A stretch of 32,000 bases of DNA, taken from Candidatus Harpocratesius repetitus. Its GTDB lineage: Archaea; Asgardarchaeota; Lokiarchaeia; Sigyniarchaeales; Promethearchaeaceae. Shown piece by piece: positions 8,193 to 28,127 of this stretch. The notes under the pieces are model-generated. The model searched no databases, had not been told where the DNA came from, and saw only the letters and a list, made by a program, of their open reading frames with translations. The DNA lies in the NCBI GenBank assembly GCA_021498095.1, contig JAIZWK010000001.1, positions 1,260,001 to 1,292,000 of the forward strand. The letters run 5' to 3'. A program made the translations under genes and the position numbers. Numbering within the stretch: the first letter of the stretch is position 1; each line of letters opens with the position of its first letter.

Positions 8193-8618
8193 TTATTTAA
8201 AATGAGTTACTATTTTCTTCAATTTATAGATTGATTTTGAGCCACATTTTGGACATTGTGTAAAATCGTCTGATGTTTCCCATTCATGGTCGCAGATCCA
8301 ACAGCCAAAACCAAACCAATCTTCATAAAAGACATGTCCTCCAATTATCTTGAAATCCTTATCTTCAACTAATGCTTGTGCGATTTTTTCAAGACCTGCG
8401 CGTAAAATACGGGAGAAAGTTGGTTGTGATACATTCAATTTATTTGCACATTCTGATTGATCAAGTTTTTGATAGTAATATAAGCGAATTGCTTCATATT
8501 CTTCCAAATTTAAAATAATGGGGTCAATATCTTCTTCTTGTCGTTCTAGATTTTTATAGTGGATTTTTACTTTATGAAATGATTCAGCATCAATCATTCG
8601 AAGTAATTTACGGGGCAT
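8193..8618 (-). CDS. DUF134 HTH protein with C-terminal Zn ribbon
   Basis: LEEYEAIRL..QSECANKLNVSQPTFSRIL..KIAQALVE; CWIC-x12-CPKC. Confidence 0.88.
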   Translation of the reverse strand: MPRKLLRMIDAESFHKVKIHYKNLERQEEDIDPIILNLEEYEAIRLYYYQKLDQSECANKLNVSQPTFSRILRAGLEKIAQALVEDKDFKIIGGHVFYEDWFGFGCWICDHEWETSDDFTQCPKCGSKSIYKLKKIVTHFK

Positions 8619-9018
8619 CGAATTTATCCTCCATTTTGAATGTTGGGGGATTAAACAACTTTAAATTCCCCTTTGTAAAAGCTATAAAATTATTTTTTAC
8701 TGTTTCAGAAATTCCTTGAAAAACTTTAATATCCATTTGAGAAAATCCCAAAAATGCCCGTCTTCCAATTTGTTTAATCACAATTGTATCAACCTTTGAA
8801 TTTTTTAATAACATTATTGGGGTCATACATTTTCCTTGCTGGTGAACAGCATTTTTGATTATTTCTATACTTTCAACTTTATTTGTTTCTGAGTTAAATG
8901 TAATTAGTGTGAATGCATGAGCATGTCCAAAGTGTTCAGCGAGTTTTGAGTGAAGTCCTTCGATTGAACTTGGAAAAGCGATTATTCTTGCAGTCATTTC
9001 CTCCTCATTAAGTGACAA
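8608..9018 (-). CDS. NifB/NifX (FeMo-co binding-like) family protein
   Basis: IAFPS..LAEHFGHAHAFTLI..GKC..IGRRAF pattern; probable start ATG 8997 after GAGGAGG; overlaps DUF134 by 11 bp. Confidence 0.88.
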   Translation of the reverse strand: MSLNEEEMTARIIAFPSSIEGLHSKLAEHFGHAHAFTLITFNSETNKVESIEIIKNAVHQQGKCMTPIMLLKNSKVDTIVIKQIGRRAFLGFSQMDIKVFQGISETVKNNFIAFTKGNLKLFNPPTFKMEDKFDAP

Positions 9019-9151: not shown

Positions 9152-10186
9152 TTAATTCTCAATTATTTCTTTGCAATTTTCTCGCTTGTTCCATAATTTT
9201 TCAGCAATTGCCTCAAATTCTTGCAGGATTTCTTGATCTTCTAAAAATTTTGCAATAGGTTCTTGACTTACAATAGCATATGGCCATCGTGAATTGATAG
9301 GAAATGATCCAAGTATTTCATATCCTTTTTGTTTAAAAAAGGCAGTTAATTCTGAGTACATTTCAAGATTCATATCTTTTTTATTTATGATTATACCAAA
9401 TGGGATATTAAAGGATTTAACAATGGAAATTGCTCTATTAATATCGTGTAAAGCTGCAGTTGTTGGTTCCGTAACAAACACAATAAAATCTACGCCAGTT
9501 ATAGCTGCCAATACTGGACATCCAATACCTGGGGGTCCGTCCATTAGAAGGAAATCCCGATTTTCTTGTTTAGCTTGAACTTCTGCAATTTTTCGAAGTT
9601 CGGTTACCATTTTTCCACTCGTTTGAGATCCTAAGATTGTTTCTCCAGATATTAAAGGAAATCCATAATCTGTCATGATTGTAGTTATTGTTCCACTATT
9701 TACTGGGTTAATTTGAAAGGAATGACTGGGACATAATAACTGACAAGCTTTACAACCTTCACATGCAACAACATCAATAATAGGAATTTTTTTATTTTCA
9801 TCCCAAGAAAGAGCATCAAAAGAGCAAAATTCTTGATCAATACATTGTTTGCAATGTGTGCATTTTTCTGGAATAAATTCGGCTTTTTCACTTGTTTGAA
9901 CTGTTTGCTTATGTGTTTCTCTTGATTTTTCTAATATTTCACTATGTTCAATATTATTGTACGAGTTTTCAGGAGTGAAGAGAATTGCCAAATTTGGAGC
10001 ATCAACATCAGCATCAGCAACAATAATTTGTCTATTTTGCTGGGCTAAAACATAAGCTAAACTCGATGTAATTGATGTTTTTCCCACTCCGCCTTTTCCT
10101 GAAATAACTGTAACTGTGAAAATTTTATATGTTTCCTCAGATTGTTGTTGGGTATTATGAGATTCACTTATCGATTTTACATTCAT
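9152..10186 (-). CDS. MinD-superfamily P-loop ATPase with inserted ferredoxin domain (COG1149 type)
   Basis: Deviant Walker A SGKGGVGKT, DADVDAPNL, CTHCKQC..C and CEGCKACQLLCP, DGPPGIGCP, VTEPT. Confidence 0.92.
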   Translation of the reverse strand: MNVKSISESHNTQQQSEETYKIFTVTVISGKGGVGKTSITSSLAYVLAQQNRQIIVADADVDAPNLAILFTPENSYNNIEHSEILEKSRETHKQTVQTSEKAEFIPEKCTHCKQCIDQEFCSFDALSWDENKKIPIIDVVACEGCKACQLLCPSHSFQINPVNSGTITTIMTDYGFPLISGETILGSQTSGKMVTELRKIAEVQAKQENRDFLLMDGPPGIGCPVLAAITGVDFIVFVTEPTTAALHDINRAISIVKSFNIPFGIIINKKDMNLEMYSELTAFFKQKGYEILGSFPINSRWPYAIVSQEPIAKFLEDQEILQEFEAIAEKLWNKRENCKEIIEN

Positions 10187-10214: not shown

Positions 10215-11222
10215 TTAATCTGCTTTTTTTATTCGTAAATTACTTGGCATATTATCATGAATTGGCTTAATAATTGCTTGTATCTTATGAAAGATTTCAA
10301 GAAATTGGTTTTTGGCAGGAAAAGTCCGAGAATCTTGAACGAATGGTTTACCTTTTGCGTAATCTTCCATAATTGTTTTATCAACTTCAATATTGCCTAA
10401 ATATTTTGTTATATCACTGGATAACTTTTTTGTAAGAAAATCTGATTCGTTTGTTAGGTTTGATCGATTCAAAATGAAGTAAGATGGTTTATTTATGAGT
10501 CGAAGTAGTTCTAGTATTCTGTTTAAATCATGTTCTCCGAACGGAGTAGGCTCAGTGACACTGATTACCATATCTGATGCATTGAGTATTTTTTCAACAT
10601 CACAGTGTGCTCCAGGAGCTGAATCGATAATTATTATGTCATACTGGTTCATTATCTCAGGAGTAGTTGCTTGAGAAATCAAATTTTCGACAATAAAAGC
10701 CGACAATGCTTCAGATGGTGTCAATTCCCCTACTAAAAGATCAAGATTTTCAAAAGCATTTGGTATGAAATATTTTGTTCCAATCTGTCGTGCTCCTGCC
10801 TCGATGGCATCATGTGGACAAATTCGCTGGCAAACTTGACATCCAGAACATAAATGCTCCATAAGTGATGGATAATGTTCGGGAAATTGTAAAATTGCAT
10901 GTCGATAACAACCTTTTTGGCAGATTCCACATTTTACACATTTTTCTTTATTAAATTTCGGAATGAAAATATCAATAGGTTGAGAAGAGACTAATTTATT
11001 TTCTAAACTTTTTCCCAATAAAATAAATGTATTTGGATTTTCAACATCACAATCTACCAGCAAAACTCGAGAATTAGATTGAGTAAATGCAACTGCCAGA
11101 TTTGTTGCAACTAATGTTTTTCCAGTTCCACCTTTTCCTCCAGTAACTGCAATTATAGGAGGAAATGATCTATTCGCTATATTTTGAGTAATACTTTCCT
11201 TTTTAAGAGAATTATAGGTCAT
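10215..11222 (-). CDS. MinD-superfamily P-loop ATPase with inserted ferredoxin domain (COG1149 type), second paralog
   Basis: GGKGGTGKT, DCDVENPN, CVKCGICQKGC and CSGCQVCQRICP, DSAPGAHC, VTEPTPFGEHDL. Confidence 0.92.
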   Translation of the reverse strand: MTYNSLKKESITQNIANRSFPPIIAVTGGKGGTGKTLVATNLAVAFTQSNSRVLLVDCDVENPNTFILLGKSLENKLVSSQPIDIFIPKFNKEKCVKCGICQKGCYRHAILQFPEHYPSLMEHLCSGCQVCQRICPHDAIEAGARQIGTKYFIPNAFENLDLLVGELTPSEALSAFIVENLISQATTPEIMNQYDIIIIDSAPGAHCDVEKILNASDMVISVTEPTPFGEHDLNRILELLRLINKPSYFILNRSNLTNESDFLTKKLSSDITKYLGNIEVDKTIMEDYAKGKPFVQDSRTFPAKNQFLEIFHKIQAIIKPIHDNMPSNLRIKKAD

Positions 11223-11295: not shown

Positions 11296-11703
11296 TTAGT
11301 ATCGATGACCTGGGCTTGTAGCAGAGTTAATTTCTTCTAATTCATTTTTTAAGAATGCATCAATTAATTCAGCAACAGTTGCATTCTCTTTTTTTAATGG
11401 ACCAAACATTTGAATATTTGCTTGCTTTAATGCATTTGCTGCATTAGGACCATAATACCCACCAATAATAGTATTCACTCCTTCATTTGCAATTGATTGA
11501 ACTGCCAGCGGCCCTGCTCCTCCCATTGCTTGACTGGCTTTATTTTCTATGATTGAAACTGTTTCAATTTCACCATCATTTAATGAAACAATGGTGAATA
11601 TGGGACAACGACCAAAACGAGTCGTTGCTTTAGCTTTTAATCCTTGATCTGAAGTGCTAGGAACAGCAATTTTTATTGTTTTTGTCTCAGACATTTTTCT
11701 CAC
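11296..11703 (-). CDS. NifB/NifX family protein (first gene of the ATPase operon)
   Basis: KIAVPS..RFGRCPIFTIV..GGAGPLAVQ..GGYYGPNAANAL; probable start ATG 11694. Confidence 0.9.
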   Translation of the reverse strand: MRKMSETKTIKIAVPSTSDQGLKAKATTRFGRCPIFTIVSLNDGEIETVSIIENKASQAMGGAGPLAVQSIANEGVNTIIGGYYGPNAANALKQANIQMFGPLKKENATVAELIDAFLKNELEEINSATSPGHRY

Positions 11704-11756: not shown

Positions 11757-11776
11757 TTATGAATATTTATTCATAA
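11757..11776. promoter_or_regulatory. Palindromic operator TTATGAATA-TT-TATTCATAA
   Basis: Perfect 9-bp inverted repeat with 2-bp spacer in the divergent NifX/PIG-L intergenic region; identical arms at 12912-12931. Confidence 0.75.
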
Positions 11777-11835
11777 AAATATTTTTTTAAAGAAAAACTT
11801 TTGGAGTTAGAATTAAAAGTAGCAAAATAAAAAGA

Positions 11836-12795
11836 TTGAAAAGAAGAATTTTTCCAGTTGTATTAGTAATTATGAACCAGAAAAAATTCTTGTTTATCTG
11901 TGCCCATCCTGATGATTTGGAATTTAACATTGGTTATCTAATATTCTGCTTGGGGCATAAAAATATCAAGGGAATTGGAAAAGAATTTATCTTTTCGATT
12001 AAAAAAGGATATCCTTCTCCTGCTCAACGCAGTGTTTCTGTTCGAATTATTAGTATGACTCGGGGAGAAATGAGTGATTATACTTTAATAACCAAATCCA
12101 CAAAAAGGGCCGCAGAAGTTAGAACTGCTGAATTAATCAAAGCTATGAATTATCTTGGAATATCAGAGAATGAAATTTCTTTTCTCGGATGTTTTGATGG
12201 TGATATTCGAGTTACAGATCGAAATATTGAGAAGCTTAAGAGAGAGATAATTACATTTCAACCAGATTATGTAATTGCTCCTGAACCAGTATTTACATGG
12301 TATTTCCATCAAGATCACCGAAAAACGGGTAAAATCGCTTATTGGGCAATCCAACGCCTGATTTCTGAAAGAAAAAATCCTAAAAAGATTTTAAAATCCT
12401 CAAATGTTGACAAAATTCCCGCTTTATATTTTTATTCTTCTTTATTTCATCATTTCTACTTTCCTAAGTATCCTTCATTTCAAATTTCTGTCAATAATGC
12501 TCTTCAAGCGCATTATTCCCAGAAAGAATTATTATTTGGGAAAGGTGTTAAAATGGATAAAATTACTACCACTATACATGGATGGCATGTTTCCAATCAT
12601 AAATATGCTCAAGCATTGAGACGTCAATTCATTTCTGGACGAGATCCGCTTTCAGCTAAATTTAAGCTTGATAAAAAGAATACTTTATGGAGAAAATTAT
12701 TATACATTTTAGGTGTAAAAATAGTTTATTCTTATACTATTCCAGAATTGGAAAGTAAACGTAAATTTTTTGATGGGACCTTACCGCCATCATAA
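11836..12795 (+). CDS. PIG-L/LmbE family deacetylase
   Basis: AHPDD and HQDH Zn-binding motifs, TRGE and R-x-x-E segments; probable start ATG 11872. Confidence 0.88.
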   Translation: MKRRIFPVVLVIMNQKKFLFICAHPDDLEFNIGYLIFCLGHKNIKGIGKEFIFSIKKGYPSPAQRSVSVRIISMTRGEMSDYTLITKSTKRAAEVRTAELIKAMNYLGISENEISFLGCFDGDIRVTDRNIEKLKREIITFQPDYVIAPEPVFTWYFHQDHRKTGKIAYWAIQRLISERKNPKKILKSSNVDKIPALYFYSSLFHHFYFPKYPSFQISVNNALQAHYSQKELLFGKGVKMDKITTTIHGWHVSNHKYAQALRRQFISGRDPLSAKFKLDKKNTLWRKLLYILGVKIVYSYTIPELESKRKFFDGTLPPS

Positions 12796-12879
12796 TTTTT
12801 ATTCAAATTTACTCTCCACCGTTCATTTTCCTTTTTTCATTCCTTTTACATTTTTTGCTTTCAGATCAATAACAAAGAC

Positions 12880-12887
12880 TTTAAATA
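12880..12887 (+). promoter_or_regulatory. Candidate TATA box for the DUF5320 gene
   Basis: TTTAAATA preceded by purine-rich AAAGAC (BRE-like), about 25 nt upstream of the palindrome; weak evidence in AT-rich DNA. Confidence 0.35.
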
Positions 12888-12911
12888 TATGGAATGAGTT
12901 TAGTCACTTAG

Positions 12912-12931
12912 TTATGAATAATTATTCATAA
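12912..12931. promoter_or_regulatory. Palindromic operator TTATGAATAATTATTCATAA
   Basis: Perfect 20-bp palindrome 26 nt upstream of the ATG at 12958; same arms as 11757-11776. Confidence 0.75.
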
Positions 12932-12948: not shown

Positions 12949-13323
12949 GTGATTAATATGCCCTACGGAGACAGAACAGGTCCTAATGGATTAGGTCCTC
13001 GAACAGGTCGAGGATTAGGTTTTTGTAATGGCTACCCACAACCGGGATATGCAAATCCGGTTGGATATCCTCCATATTCGCAACGAGGTTTTGGTCGAGG
13101 CGGAGGTTATGGTCGAGGTGGTGGATGGGGAAGAGGTGGAGGTTATGGTCGAGGTTATCGACACTGGGCTCCTATATATGATGTCTATCCTCCAATTTAT
13201 CCTCCAACTTCAATTTCTCCTGAAGATCAAAAGAAAACCTATGAACTTTATGTTCAAAATCTTGAAAAACAACTTAACGATGCAAAAAAACATTTAGAAA
13301 ATTTTGAAAAAGATAATGAATAA
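12949..13323 (+). CDS. DUF5320 family Gly/Arg-rich protein
   Basis: MPYGDRTGPNGLGPRTGRGLGFC N-terminus, Gly-rich middle, C-terminal coiled coil; probable start ATG 12958. Confidence 0.88.
   Translation: MINMPYGDRTGPNGLGPRTGRGLGFCNGYPQPGYANPVGYPPYSQRGFGRGGGYGRGGGWGRGGGYGRGYRHWAPIYDVYPPIYPPTSISPEDQKKTYELYVQNLEKQLNDAKKHLENFEKDNE
13093..13158 (+). repeat. 18-bp coding tandem repeat (GRGGG[YW] x3 plus a partial unit)
   Basis: ggtcgaggcggaggttat / ggtcgaggtggtggatgg / ggaagaggtggaggttat / ggtcgaggttat. Confidence 0.8.
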
Positions 13324-13465: not shown

Positions 13466-14056
13466 TCACATTAAATTTAATTCTTCAGGTGATCTAACTC
13501 CTGCTCTTTTTCTGTCTGCTGCACAAACAGGATTCCCTTTACAAGGATCATCAGTATTTACCAAAGATTCAACTGTTAGGTTAAGTGGAAAGATTATTGG
13601 ACTCGCCATAGAAGTAACCAAATCCATTTGAATTCGAAATACATAAGGTTTGTTACGAAAATGTCTATCCATAACAGCATCTAAATGTTTTAAGTTTCGA
13701 GAAGCCATAAAAAGAGTCATATTATAATCTCCTGTGCTTTTAATTGCATTTATAACAAAAGGGCAATATTCACATAATTCCATTATATCTTCTGGACGAG
13801 TAGTTTTTAGATTAACACGTATTAAGTTCAGTTCTGGAATTTGTTGAAAATTTACACCAATTTGTGTGGCAATTAATCCTCTTTCGGCTAATTTTTTAAT
13901 GCGAGCGCCAATGGCTGGTTGGGATAATCCTAAGATTTCAGCGATTTTGGAATGTGTTATCGAAGGATCATGTTGCAATTGGTCTATTATGGCTTTGTCA
14001 GTTGAATCAATATTAAAATTCTTTTTCATTACCTTCAAGAATACGTGTGCTGACAT
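13466..14056 (-). CDS. Lrp/AsnC family transcriptional regulator with extra Cys motifs
   Basis: IDSTDKAIIDQLQHDPSITHSKIAEILGLSQPAIGARIKKL HTH; RAM-like domain with CEYCP; C-terminal PC-x5-C. Confidence 0.88.
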   Translation of the reverse strand: MSAHVFLKVMKKNFNIDSTDKAIIDQLQHDPSITHSKIAEILGLSQPAIGARIKKLAERGLIATQIGVNFQQIPELNLIRVNLKTTRPEDIMELCEYCPFVINAIKSTGDYNMTLFMASRNLKHLDAVMDRHFRNKPYVFRIQMDLVTSMASPIIFPLNLTVESLVNTDDPCKGNPVCAADRKRAGVRSPEELNLM

Positions 14057-14205: not shown

Positions 14206-14994
14206 GTGTTTAGGAGGGTTTTAATGGGACGTCCCCACAAATATCGCAAAATTTCAAATATTGTGCCGAAATTTAATAATTACCATCCAAAAGGAATAAA
14301 TTCTCAAGATGTTAATCAAATTTTTCTTAGTATGGAGGAATTTGAAGCCCTTCGACTTCGTTATTATGAAGATCTTAAACAAACTGATGCAGCTCAAAAA
14401 ATGCAAATTTCACAGACTACATTTTCAAGAATTCTATCTAAAGCTTATAGAAAGATAACAAAAGCTTTAGTTGAAGGGTATGGAATTGCAATACAAACAG
14501 AAATCATGCCTCTACCAATTAAACCTGTTCAACCTATTTCATCTATTCCTCCTCGGTATGGTCGCCGTAGACATGGGCGTGCTTTTCATAGTATTGAGGA
14601 CTTTCCGCAAAGGGGGGGTTCAAAACATCTTGGTAATAATTCATTTAAAATGGATCAAGATAAATCTTTTCAACTGGATCAATCACCAAATTGGATTCCA
14701 CGACCGACAGATCCAAAAAGTCAAGAAAGGCAGGTAATTGTTTTTAAAGGTTGGGGATGTTTGAATTGTGGGTTTGTTTTTCAAACTTCGTCGCAATCTG
14801 ATGAAAATTTGAAAGAAAGAAATGATAAAAAAGTGGGTGAATTCGCTGAAGAAAGAAACTATAAAGATCATAAAGACCTTGAAAAGAAAGAAATTTCTTC
14901 TTCCCAATCAAACACAACTAAGCAAAAACCAATATGTCCGAAATGTAACTCAAAAAAAACATATCAATTAATCAAAAAATTATCTCCTGATTGA
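14206..14994 (+). CDS. DUF134 HTH protein, long paralog with split Zn ribbon
   Basis: MGRPHKYRKI..EEFEALRL..AAQKMQISQTTFSRIL..KALVEG; CLNC-x55-CPKC; probable start ATG 14224 after AGGAGG. Confidence 0.88.
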   Translation: MFRRVLMGRPHKYRKISNIVPKFNNYHPKGINSQDVNQIFLSMEEFEALRLRYYEDLKQTDAAQKMQISQTTFSRILSKAYRKITKALVEGYGIAIQTEIMPLPIKPVQPISSIPPRYGRRRHGRAFHSIEDFPQRGGSKHLGNNSFKMDQDKSFQLDQSPNWIPRPTDPKSQERQVIVFKGWGCLNCGFVFQTSSQSDENLKERNDKKVGEFAEERNYKDHKDLEKKEISSSQSNTTKQKPICPKCNSKKTYQLIKKLSPD

Positions 14995-27800: not shown

Positions 27801-28127
27801 ATCTTAAATTCTCCGAGTTTTAAAAATCAATTTTTTTTCATTTTTATTTAAATATTCATAATTTTTACTCAATTTTACCCATTGTATTATTCATAAAAGC
27901 AACCAATTTTTGAAATTTTCCTTTATTTTTCCTTTAAATAATATATGGAGAAAAAAAGAATATAAATTCGATTTTAGCGATAAATTTGATAAATTTACGC
28001 ATTTACCAATATTCCATCCAAATTTGAAATTTGTCGATCAGAAATTTAGATCTTTTTTTAACAAATTCAACTATAATTTGATTAAAAATAGTCAAAGAAC
28101 AACCCATAATTATATTTTCTAAAGTTC

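Follow-up and report, generated by a model that had tools for sequence, protein, structure and literature searches.

Organization of the locus

The window analysed here, a stretch of 32,000 nucleotides from the genome of Candidatus Harpocratesius repetitus, contains two copies of a perfect palindrome, which we refer to as O1 and O2. O1 (TTATGAATA-TT-TATTCATAA, positions 11757..11776, no strand assigned) is intergenic, with an operon on the minus strand on one side and a plus-strand gene for a PIG-L family deacetylase (11873..12795; Pfam PF02585) on the other. The first gene of the operon, all of which is on the minus strand, is NifX-like (gene a, 11296..11694; Nitro_FeMo-Co, PF02579, E 3.5e-17) and is followed by two genes for MinD/ParA-type ATPases with a ferredoxin insert. 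The former of these (10215..11222; Pfam CbiA, ParA and Fer4) has a two-[4Fe-4S] insert and is Orp3/Orp4-like, and the latter (9152..10186) was also assigned from Pfam matches. A second NifX-like gene (gene b, 8608..9018; PF02579, E 7.9e-15), whose product is a candidate sensor partner, overlaps by 11 nt the last gene of the operon (8193..8618; PF02001), which encodes a short DUF134 protein of 141 amino acids, the candidate repressor.

O2 (TTATGAATA-AT-TATTCATAA, 12912..12931, no strand assigned) lies upstream of a plus-strand DUF5320 gene (12958..13323; PF17253, E 2.8e-23) that is present as a single copy in the genome. Beyond it are a minus-strand Lrp/AsnC-family gene identified by Pfam (13466..14056), which an earlier sequence-only reading of this DNA had put forward as an alternative regulator, and a plus-strand gene for a long DUF134 paralogue (14224..14994; PF02001, E 1.5e-21). 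The PIG-L gene is located between O1 and O2. Alignment with the sister genome G002 places both operators in one intergenic region from which PIG-L is missing, and the two promoters of the window look like one ancestral divergent control region, with PIG-L now between the operators.

The palindrome is over-represented and precedes a small set of genes

O1 and O2 are 9-N2-9 inverted repeats with perfectly complementary arms, and all 18 arm bases are the same in the two copies, exactly at the coordinates that the sequence-only reading had given. With up to three mismatches allowed, they are the sole matches to the palindrome in the window; shuffled windows contained a mean of 0.18 such matches, and two were reached in 1 of 100 shuffles. 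In the whole genome (4.36 Mb) the exact palindrome was found three times against 0.003 expected (Markov order 1 to 3), and its 16-bp core, ATGAATA-N2-TATTCAT, six times against 0.33 expected. Beyond the window the genome carries one more exact copy and two others that each depart from it at a single base, so that the earlier statement that no other full copy was found holds inside the window but not genome-wide. The 18-bp inner stretch, TATGAATA-N2-TATTCATA, has five copies in the genome, all of them intergenic, which precede the NifX-like/Fe-S ATPase/DUF134 operon, the DUF5320 gene, a third NifX-like gene, feoA-feoB and a gene for a 54-amino-acid ferredoxin. Sequence comparison confirmed the pair as real copies of a shared, predicted operator.

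In order to scan the genome for further sites we used a position weight matrix (PWM), symmetrised and built on 28 orthologous promoter sites, in which T, G, A, T and A, T, C, A positions are invariant. Four matches scored 24-29 and the next ones below 20; O2 scored 29.0 and O1 27.7, the latter ranking third in the genome. The half-sites that had been noted near 27853 and 27888 are both present as TATTCATAA words (27853-27861 and 27887-27895) without left arms, and score 7 compared with 28-29 for the full sites. Such a genome scan had been proposed in the sequence-only reading as a check on whether the motif is scattered, and the matches are biased to intergenic DNA before genes: 10 of the 12 top PWM matches are intergenic, although the coding mask covers 85% of bases. 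The reading had also described the regulon as local. This is corrected by the sites of equal strength that lie 2.1 to 2.8 Mb away, before the third NifX-like gene, feoAB and the small ferredoxin gene, and by box-gene pairs that recur across the phylum; the regulon is therefore genome-wide.

Two groups of sites were set aside. The sixth copy of the core overlaps the aroE stop codon; its flanks are poor and it probably arose by chance. Weaker PWM matches would extend the regulon to a pyridine nucleotide-disulfide oxidoreductase, an NADH oxidase-like flavoprotein, TusA and DUF6125, and none was counted; the best of these candidates, the oxidoreductase site, has two mismatches, but it is not conserved in the G002 orthologue (74% identical), where the best match has seven.

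Conservation of the box across archaea

The core occurs 51 times in the 41 genomes of the order, compared with five occurrences of a reversed control pattern, and these sites again precede orthologues of the same target genes. We also examined DUF5320 orthologues at loci chosen without reference to the motif. O2 is orthologous to the G002 site and to sites before all 30 of them: a site with at most 4 mismatches in 18 lies within 250 bp upstream in 30 of 30 cases, and with at most one mismatch in 21 of 30, whereas in downstream control regions long enough for scanning the best match had 5-9 mismatches in 28 of 29.

In other Asgard families perfect boxes are found directly before DUF134-NifX-NifX-ATPase-ATPase operons, some of them in genomes of 46% G+C, and in family f23 a perfect box precedes a DUF134 gene beside which no other gene of the cluster was detected. 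The related-locus search returned Promethearchaeota-type records only; other phyla were reached by searching with representative proteins and inspecting their contigs, and the box is present on DPANN contigs too, again with these target genes. Genomes of 43-49% G+C keep the box while its flanks have diverged. In both cultured species, Promethearchaeum syntrophicum MK-D1 and Lokiarchaeum ossiferum, DUF5320 and the NifX operon are preceded by box-like sites; in MK-D1 the same is true of feoAB and the ferredoxin gene. Family f11 has the exact box in 2 of 76 genomes and DUF134 in 70 of 76; in its upstream regions only the left half-site is good and the boxes are degenerate. At two bacterial DUF134 loci that were inspected (L246 and L248) no obvious palindrome was seen. 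Taken together, these comparisons indicate that the box is a DNA switch conserved across Asgard and DPANN archaea. Its consensus is TTATGAATA-WW-TATTCATAA, with the core TGAA-N6-TTCA, and we propose to name it the DUF134 box.

DUF134 as the candidate binding protein

The genome encodes two DUF134 proteins and both genes flank the sites; they score 53.1 and 77.2 bits against the DUF134 profile, whose curated cut-off is 27. The short protein consists of a sigma-70-region-4-type helix-turn-helix (HTH) and a C-terminal CxxC-N12-CxxC ribbon; the long one shares the recognition helix, SQTTFSRIL, but its Cys4 ribbon is split, and the window PWM scan gave no strong box upstream of its gene. In family f11 the helix has FNR. 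Around 80 DUF134 genes, 570 kb of DNA contained 69 sites with at most two mismatches, which corresponds to 121 per Mb compared with 1.8 per Mb in this genome, and in at least six families a DUF134 gene belongs to a box-controlled operon or adjoins one; in one family nothing else is conserved next to the box. Co-occurrence discriminates poorly, as DUF134 is present in 37 of 41 genomes within the order; it was not detected in the other four, and the box is still there in three of these, although they are only 74-92% complete.

The nearest solved relative is the DNA-binding domain of Bacillus subtilis DeoR (PDB 7bhy, profile E 1.3e-7). The recognition helices align as ISRPTVSRLL in DeoR and VSQPTFSRIL in DUF134, whose S, Q, T and R are invariant in the alignment. 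The DeoR half-operator, ATTGAACAAAATTTCAAT, is also of the form TGAA-N6-TTCA, and an Arg of DeoR, R39 in the numbering of the paper, contacts the G (PMC11229326). A Foldseek search of the PDB with DUF134 gave no match at E <=0.001, its top rows being sigma region 4 and the DeoR DNA-binding domain; the latter superposes with an rmsd of 0.7 Å over 40 residues at 45% identity. A homodimer model of DUF134 scored 0.67 compared with 0.00 for the best control, with contact agreement between runs of at least 95% and partner pLDDT of at least 71. The homodimer mark was reached in the calibration of the tool by 20 of 30 proteins solved as one-chain pairs and 1 of 23 solved as single chains (rough counts, as our own alignment was used), and the pass may reflect likeness to the solved DeoR dimers. 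A comparison across families revealed no covariation between helix and box: two or three helix positions differ (FSR, LHR, FYR, ISR) and the box is constant. In the literature searched there was no functional study, DNA motif or target gene for DUF134.

Because of the operon linkage, the DeoR-like helix and the homodimer model, DUF134 is the best candidate binder of the box, which supports the first of the two binders that the sequence-only reading had named, DUF134 or the Lrp. A DUF134 dimer would place one recognition helix on each TGAA half-site. The protein would be supplied by the last gene of the box-controlled operon and again, as the paralogue, 1.3 kb downstream of O2.

Promoter geometry

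A TATA-like word, TTTAAATA, was read at 12880-12887 on the plus strand, where the sequence-only reading had placed a TATA box; it is kept in G002 and sits 24 bp before O2, so that a start about 26 nt past it would coincide with the 5' edge of O2. A Shine-Dalgarno-like GTGAT (12949..12953, plus strand, read from sequence) lies 4 nt before the ATG of DUF5320, and relatives have GGTGA or GAGGTG at this position. It implies a leader, and the DUF5320 promoter is therefore upstream of O2. On the minus strand another TATA-like word, TTTAAAAAAATA (11780..11791, also read from sequence), is directly upstream of O1, and a start of the NifX operon would lie inside O1.

Similar arrangements are seen elsewhere. 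Family f16 has the order TATA, 3 bp, box, 1 nt, GTG start; in f23 the TATA box is immediately followed by the box; the DUF5320 promoters of f3 have a TATA box flanked by two boxes; and at the third NifX-like gene of this genome the box abuts the ATG, with a TATA box 4 nt upstream. The feoA copy is 31 bp past the stop of the preceding gene, and the geometry at both O1 and feoA is ambiguous, with several TATA-like words in AT-rich intergenic DNA. Typically the box adjoins the TATA box, or lies downstream of it and ahead of the start codon, an arrangement that would suit a repressor. The earlier suggestion of repression, made from the overlap of O2 with the expected start, gains support from box positions. 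An occupied box would block the assembly of TBP, TFB and RNA polymerase, and the targets, including the regulator's own operon, would be repressed.

Comparison with known systems

DeoR (SorC family; PDB 7bhy, 8r7y; PMC11229326) shares with DUF134 the sigma-70-region-4-type HTH with a near-identical recognition helix. It binds as a dimer, its operator and the box have the same TGAA-N6-TTCA core, and it is a repressor whose operator partly overlaps the promoter of the target operon (PMC11229326). By analogy, the DUF134 DNA-binding domain probably works like that of DeoR. Unlike DeoR, both DUF134 proteins are without the SorC sugar-phosphate effector domain: PF04198 was found in neither of them nor anywhere in the genome, and they are therefore not members of the SorC family. 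Its place is taken by the N-terminal extension of DUF134 together with a Cys4 ribbon or, in other lineages, by a NifX-like domain. DeoR further acts as a tetramer on a 39-bp bipartite operator in nucleoside catabolism, whereas here there are single 20-bp boxes or TATA-flanking pairs, and the candidate control by DUF134 concerns metal-sulfur genes at an archaeal TBP/TFB promoter.

The gene content resembles the orange protein (ORP) cluster of Desulfovibrio vulgaris Hildenborough (PMC8359166, PMC6345978, PMC3897727), in which Orp8 corresponds to the NifX-like proteins, Orp3 and Orp4 correspond to the pair of MinD-like ATPases, and a small companion protein is likewise encoded. The two systems are alike in their divergent genes with one dedicated regulator, here a predicted one, on the intergenic region and in being confined to anaerobes. 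The ORP-type composition of the present locus, a NifX-like (Nitro_FeMo-Co) protein with two MinD-like ATPases bearing two [4Fe-4S] motifs, was established from Pfam matches and the published ORP content (PMC6345978). Control differs: in Desulfovibrio it is positive and involves sigma-54, IHF and OrpR, an enhancer-binding protein that uses an Fe-S cluster to sense redox and that, according to the authors, is seemingly restricted to deltaproteobacteria, whereas here a palindrome lies at an archaeal core promoter with DUF134 as the candidate regulator, and feoAB and a ferredoxin belong to the regulon. An Orp9-type Mrp-NifX fusion is missing from the window, and no EBP-type (OrpR-like) gene was found among the 30 window ORFs scanned with Pfam. 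Archaea are not known to have sigma-54.

An archaeal parallel is EnfR (TON_1525, Tfx family) of Thermococcus onnurineus (PDB 8hno; PMC10570040), a repressor that forms dimers and has a further domain C-terminal to its sigma-70-region-4-type HTH; its pseudo-palindrome is centred 21 bp before the start codon of the target operon. The HTH domains superpose with 35% identity over 48 residues, but EnfR belongs to a different family and is not matched by the DUF134 profile at E <=1, and its 36-bp pseudo-palindrome is unrelated in sequence and controls a CO dehydrogenase/hydrogenase cluster. Fur and DtxR are likewise dimeric repressors that bind AT-rich palindromes overlapping promoters, with feoAB as a classical target. 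Boxes of the Fur family, however, are 7-1-7 or 9-1-9 repeats with an odd centre and differ in sequence from the DUF134 box.

Alternative explanations

We consider it likely that the palindrome is the operator of a conserved regulon bound by a DUF134 dimer that represses metal-sulfur and iron-uptake genes. The box could instead be real but bound by another regulator, such as a metal sensor of the DtxR family, an Lrp/AsnC protein or a factor not yet recognised, with DUF134 only a target. Several points speak for this: feoAB, whose presence is typical of regulons under iron-sensing repressors, is included; this genome encodes one Fur and 2-3 DtxR-type proteins; and DUF134 was not detected in three box-bearing genomes. 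Archaeal Lrp proteins such as FL11 also bind TGAAA-type palindromes. DtxR/IdeR boxes, on the other hand, are of the TTAGGTTAGCCTAACCTAA type, unlike the DUF134 box. Fur was dismissed on its phyletic pattern, as it was not found in many box-bearing genomes of 92-100% completeness, among them the closed Lokiarchaeum ossiferum genome. The box-bearing genomes in which it was not found include G002, G007, G010, G025, G037 and G039 (89-100% complete). The Lrp orthologue adjoins the locus only within the genus (G001, G002; L026, L077), while the box is conserved far beyond it, which leaves the Lrp, proposed as binder by the sequence-only reading, unsupported. Neither DtxR nor Lrp genes are linked to the box across families, as DUF134 is, and the DeoR-like helix independently predicts TGAA-N6-TTCA, so that another regulator seems unlikely.

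Alternatively, DUF134 may bind the box and activate its promoters, or activate some of them and repress others. At O1 (towards PIG-L) and at feoA the site is upstream of a TATA-like word, as is the upstream box of the f3 DUF5320 promoters, archaeal activators bind upstream of the BRE, and the equivalent ORP genes of Desulfovibrio are under the activator OrpR (PMC8359166). Against this, the box fills the gap between TATA and start codon in f16, f23 and the third NifX-like gene, where a bound dimer must clash with the pre-initiation complex; the upstream boxes abut TATA within 1-4 bp and would cover the BRE; and the solved relatives, DeoR (PMC11229326) and EnfR (PMC10570040), are repressors. We regard activation as quite improbable. 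That the palindrome is not a protein site but an RNA hairpin or terminator, the remnant of a mobile element or a chance AT-rich repeat has a negligible probability. Although AT-rich palindromes are common in a genome of 31% G+C, one core copy overlaps the aroE stop and the feoA copy closely follows a gene, the number of exact copies expected by chance is 0.003, the G and C positions do not vary among 28 independent orthologous promoters, and at a genomic G+C of 43-49% the box outlasts its flanks. An AU-rich stem of 9 bp closed by a 2-nt loop would moreover make a poor hairpin, and the copies have no surrounding repeat family or target-site duplication. The conservation data thus appear to have effectively refuted such readings.

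A possible sensor and the meaning of the regulon

Under repression by DUF134, the targets would be orange-protein-like genes (NifX-like proteins, the two Fe-S MinD-type ATPases and DUF5320), feoAB and a small ferredoxin. The sensor is most likely a NifX-like protein with a bound metal-sulfur species, since fusions of this domain to DUF134 occur in many other organisms; among representatives of long DUF134 proteins, 6 of 10 have such a fusion. We tentatively raise the possibility, which we hold to be less than even, that DUF134 and NifX-like proteins act jointly as a split one-component sensor with a wide distribution among archaea and anaerobic bacteria, in which the NifX-like domain, in trans here and fused in cis elsewhere, binds a metal-sulfur species and sets the affinity of the DUF134 dimer for TGAA-N6-TTCA.

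DUF134 (UPF0251, PF02001) is a large family of predicted DNA binders, which forms about 2,300 clusters in the searched library when grouped at 50% identity, and a 20-bp box with a small coherent regulon makes it directly testable, including in two cultured Asgard archaea. The regulon links orange-protein-type genes and the NifX-like proteins of non-diazotrophs to ferrous iron uptake, and their likely role is therefore narrowed to metal-sulfur handling; it also suggests how the orange-protein-type system is controlled beyond deltaproteobacteria, where OrpR is absent. If the split sensor proves true, Fe(II) uptake through feoAB and the orange-protein-type machinery would be coupled to metal-sulfur status; two large uncharacterised families would gain a first function, and Asgard archaea a first defined transcription-factor regulon.

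Two identical operators and their locus

The two palindromes O1, TTATGAATATTTATTCATAA (11757-11776), and O2, TTATGAATAATTATTCATAA (12912-12931), are both exact matches, and the sequence-only reading was right that their arms are identical (18 of 18 arm bases); no further match with up to three mismatches was found in the window. The window corresponds to positions 1,260,001-1,292,000 of one 4.36-Mb contig whose G+C content is 31%. In this genome the exact palindrome occurs three times against 0.003 expected, and its 16-bp core, ATGAATA-N2-TATTCAT, six times against 0.33 expected (Markov order 1 to 3). The sixth core copy (L004:6003-6022, genome 4332032-4332051) overlaps the stop codon of a shikimate dehydrogenase gene, has convergent genes on either side and poor flanks, and is probably a chance occurrence.

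O1 lies between the PIG-L gene and a minus-strand operon that encodes NifX-like a (11296-11694), two MinD/ParA-type ATPases, each with a ferredoxin insert, NifX-like b (8608-9018) and a short DUF134 protein of 141 aa (8193-8618), the last two genes overlapping by 11 nt. O2 is placed between PIG-L and the sole DUF5320 gene of the genome; next come a gene of the Lrp/AsnC family and the longer of the only two DUF134 genes in the genome (14206-14994). Since no copy of the shared motif (hereafter the box) was found upstream of this longer paralogue, its expression may be independent of the regulon. Alignment with the sister genome, G002, showed that the NifX operon and DUF5320 are there divergent neighbours with one common intergenic region, which can be aligned to the O2 region and in addition contains a degenerate O1-like site. 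O1 and O2 look like a single ancestral control region, now split by PIG-L (11873-12795, compared with L026:3886-4040 of the sister genome), which itself looks like a gene inserted into the divergent control region and may have been placed under the same control by the insertion.

A genome-wide regulon

Five copies of the inner 18 bp, TATGAATA-N2-TATTCATA, occur in the genome, O1 and O2 included, and all five are intergenic. The regulon had been proposed to be local, a view that no longer holds: of the three further copies, one directly adjoins the start codon (ATG) of a third NifX-like gene and has a TTTAAAT box 4 nt farther upstream, one precedes feoA-feoB by 188 bp, and one precedes a 54-aa ferredoxin-like gene by 28 bp. 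This content of orange-protein-type proteins, a ferredoxin and feoAB fits a metal-sulfur theme. The third NifX-like protein (L001:5620-6009, genome 3372119-3372508) has a His-rich C-terminal tail of the HEHHHENVH type.

A PWM derived from the sites that precede the DUF5320 orthologues of other genomes gave four scores at 24-29 in this genome, the next ones being below 20, and 10 of the top 12 matches were intergenic under a coding mask covering 85% of bases. Weaker sites, scoring 16-20, are found at genome positions 232910, 1460742, 2623526 and 3889889 (L193, L198, L196 and L195); the genes just downstream encode a pyridine nucleotide-disulfide oxidoreductase, an NADH:flavin oxidoreductase fusion, TusA and DUF6125, a possible sign of a redox or sulfur theme. 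Because the best of them, at 232910 before the pyridine nucleotide-disulfide oxidoreductase gene, has no conserved counterpart at the G002 orthologue, the weaker sites before redox genes were not counted as regulon members. The half-sites claimed near 27853 and 27888 are present as TATTCATAA words, but their partner arms are not: these right half-sites (27853-27861 and 27887-27895) are direct copies 34 bp apart without left arms, score only 7, and lie between the start of a minus-strand FtsX-type permease gene and a small plus-strand ORF.

Conservation across archaea

Across 41 genomes of the order the core occurs 51 times, versus 5 for a reversed control pattern, and the flanking ORFs that recur beside it are the NifX/ATPase/DUF134 operon, DUF5320, feoAB, the small ferredoxin and the third NifX-like gene. 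Independently of the motif, the 250 bp upstream of each of 30 DUF5320 matches in relatives were scanned; every one contained a site with at most four mismatches of 18 (21 with at most one), whereas the best sites in downstream control regions had 5-9 mismatches, with one exception that precedes the next orange protein (ORP) operon. In a phylum-wide scan the core was found in other Asgard families (f9, 18/28 genomes; f16, 11/19; f23, 4/6; f26, 9/21) and was nearly absent from some, e.g. f11 (2/76). Among 19 sites sampled outside the class, 14 immediately precede an ORP-type or DUF134 gene; for 11 of these the gene is DUF134, mostly at the head of a DUF134-NifX-NifX-ATPase-ATPase operon. The box before DUF134 and ORP-type genes is kept even in genomes of 43-49% G+C, whose composition makes the chance occurrence of so AT-rich a 20-mer very improbable.

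The same box precedes DUF5320/DUF134 operons in Nanobdellota- and Woesearchaeota-labelled contigs (DPANN), and variants with the 6-2-6 layout are found before other DUF134 genes (TGAGCATATGTTCA and TGCACATATGTGCA, and TGAAATATATTTCA in a bacterial-type contig). In one Nanobdellota contig (L242:1689-3374) a cation-efflux (CDF) transporter gene is located between DUF5320 and DUF134 in the operon, and the box and the start codon of DUF5320 overlap. In the GC-richer f11 loci (L222-L237) the DUF134 helix reads SQPTFNRIL, and the word TTTTGAAT is conserved about 25 nt before the ATG, its right arm being degenerate; a small, divergently oriented Cys-rich ORF starting MPAPCYLCG is frequent farther upstream.

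Promoter geometry

The box is closely associated with core promoter elements. In f16 the box begins 3 bp after the TATA box and is separated by 1 nt from the GTG start, in f23 the box immediately follows the TATA box, and at the third NifX-like gene here TATA, 4 nt, box, 1 nt and ATG succeed one another; as this ATG is one base from the operator, the predicted mRNA is implied to be leaderless. In the DUF5320 promoters of family f3 a first box abuts the TATA box upstream, covering the BRE, and a second lies about 30 bp downstream, ahead of the Shine-Dalgarno sequence. At O2 a TTTAAATA box precedes the operator by 24 bp and a GTGAT Shine-Dalgarno sequence follows it, so transcription should start at the edge of the operator. 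A bound box would sterically block assembly of the pre-initiation complex; the geometry at all these promoters is compatible with such repression, as had been suggested for O2.

The candidate regulator

Around 80 Promethearchaeota DUF134 genes we found 69 sites with at most two mismatches in 570 kb, a density of 121 per Mb vs 1.8 per Mb for the present genome as a whole; many of these sites precede the DUF134 gene by 40-200 bp. In f9, f16 and f26 the first gene to follow the box is DUF134, and in f23 DUF134 is the sole cluster gene detected beside the box. The nearest solved relative of the DUF134 profile is the DNA-binding domain of B. subtilis DeoR (E 1.3e-7), a match with which a fold search was concordant. 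The recognition helix ISRPTVSRLL of DeoR aligns with VSQPTFSRIL in DUF134, where S, Q, T and R are invariant among the aligned proteins, and the DeoR half-operator, ATTGAACAAAATTTCAAT (PMC11229326), has a TGAA-N6-TTCA core in common with the box; in the DeoR crystal structure the arginine numbered R39 contacts the G (PMC11229326). As a SorC-type effector domain was not found in this genome, the DUF134 pair remain the sole candidates found with a DeoR-like HTH.

Both linkage across families and the DeoR-like helix thus favour DUF134 as the putative binder over the Lrp that had been named beside it, whose gene accompanies the locus only within the genus. Fur was ruled out, since it was not found in many highly complete box-bearing genomes, the closed Candidatus Lokiarchaeum ossiferum genome among them. 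A DtxR-type regulator is conceivable on distribution, and DtxR-type genes are present in the genome, but nothing links them to the box.

The short DUF134 was modelled as a homodimer with a score of 0.67 (best control 0.00), contact agreement of at least 95% between runs and partner pLDDT of at least 71. In calibration this mark was reached by 20/30 proteins solved as one-chain pairs and 1/23 solved as single chains, counts that hold only roughly because the alignment was custom-made. The modelled interface (residues 18-25, 41-51 and 73-91) leaves the recognition helix free. The model's pass may be partly due to solved DeoR dimers.

Signal and relation to known systems

Both DUF134 proteins here terminate in a CxxC...CxxC ribbon, and in the long paralogue about 50 residues are inserted between the two knuckles and a long disordered linker is present. 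The f9 proteins and that of locus L200 are without the ribbon, yet stand behind the same box, so the ribbon appears dispensable for DNA recognition. Among long DUF134 representatives 6/10 are fused to a NifX-like domain. Such Nitro_FeMo-Co fusions are frequent (L201, L244; P0043, P0076, P0079, P0104, P0120, P0152), and P0120 combines HTH, zinc ribbon and NifX-like domain within one chain. The most economical idea from these architectures is that the NifX-like protein is a candidate sensor, which, with or without a loaded metal-sulfur species, would be the effector-sensing partner of DUF134.

Orange-protein-type proteins have been described in Desulfovibrio (PMC6345978), where activation of the equivalent genes depends on sigma-54, IHF and OrpR, a redox sensor with an Fe-S cluster; according to the authors, OrpR seems to be confined to deltaproteobacteria, and the system may have originated in archaea (PMC8359166). 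A region-4-type repressor known from archaea, EnfR, is of the Tfx family and has a different binding site (PMC10570040). The system proposed here is of the ordinary operator-repressor type. In the literature searched we found no study on the function or DNA site of DUF134 (UPF0251, PF02001, COG1342). Taken as a whole, the palindrome is an operator of a conserved genome-wide regulon, and we consider DUF134 its likely repressor, which would also control its own operon; the mechanistic model is the DNA-binding domain of DeoR. A large family of unknown function would thereby gain a concrete, easily tested role, in organisms of high current interest.
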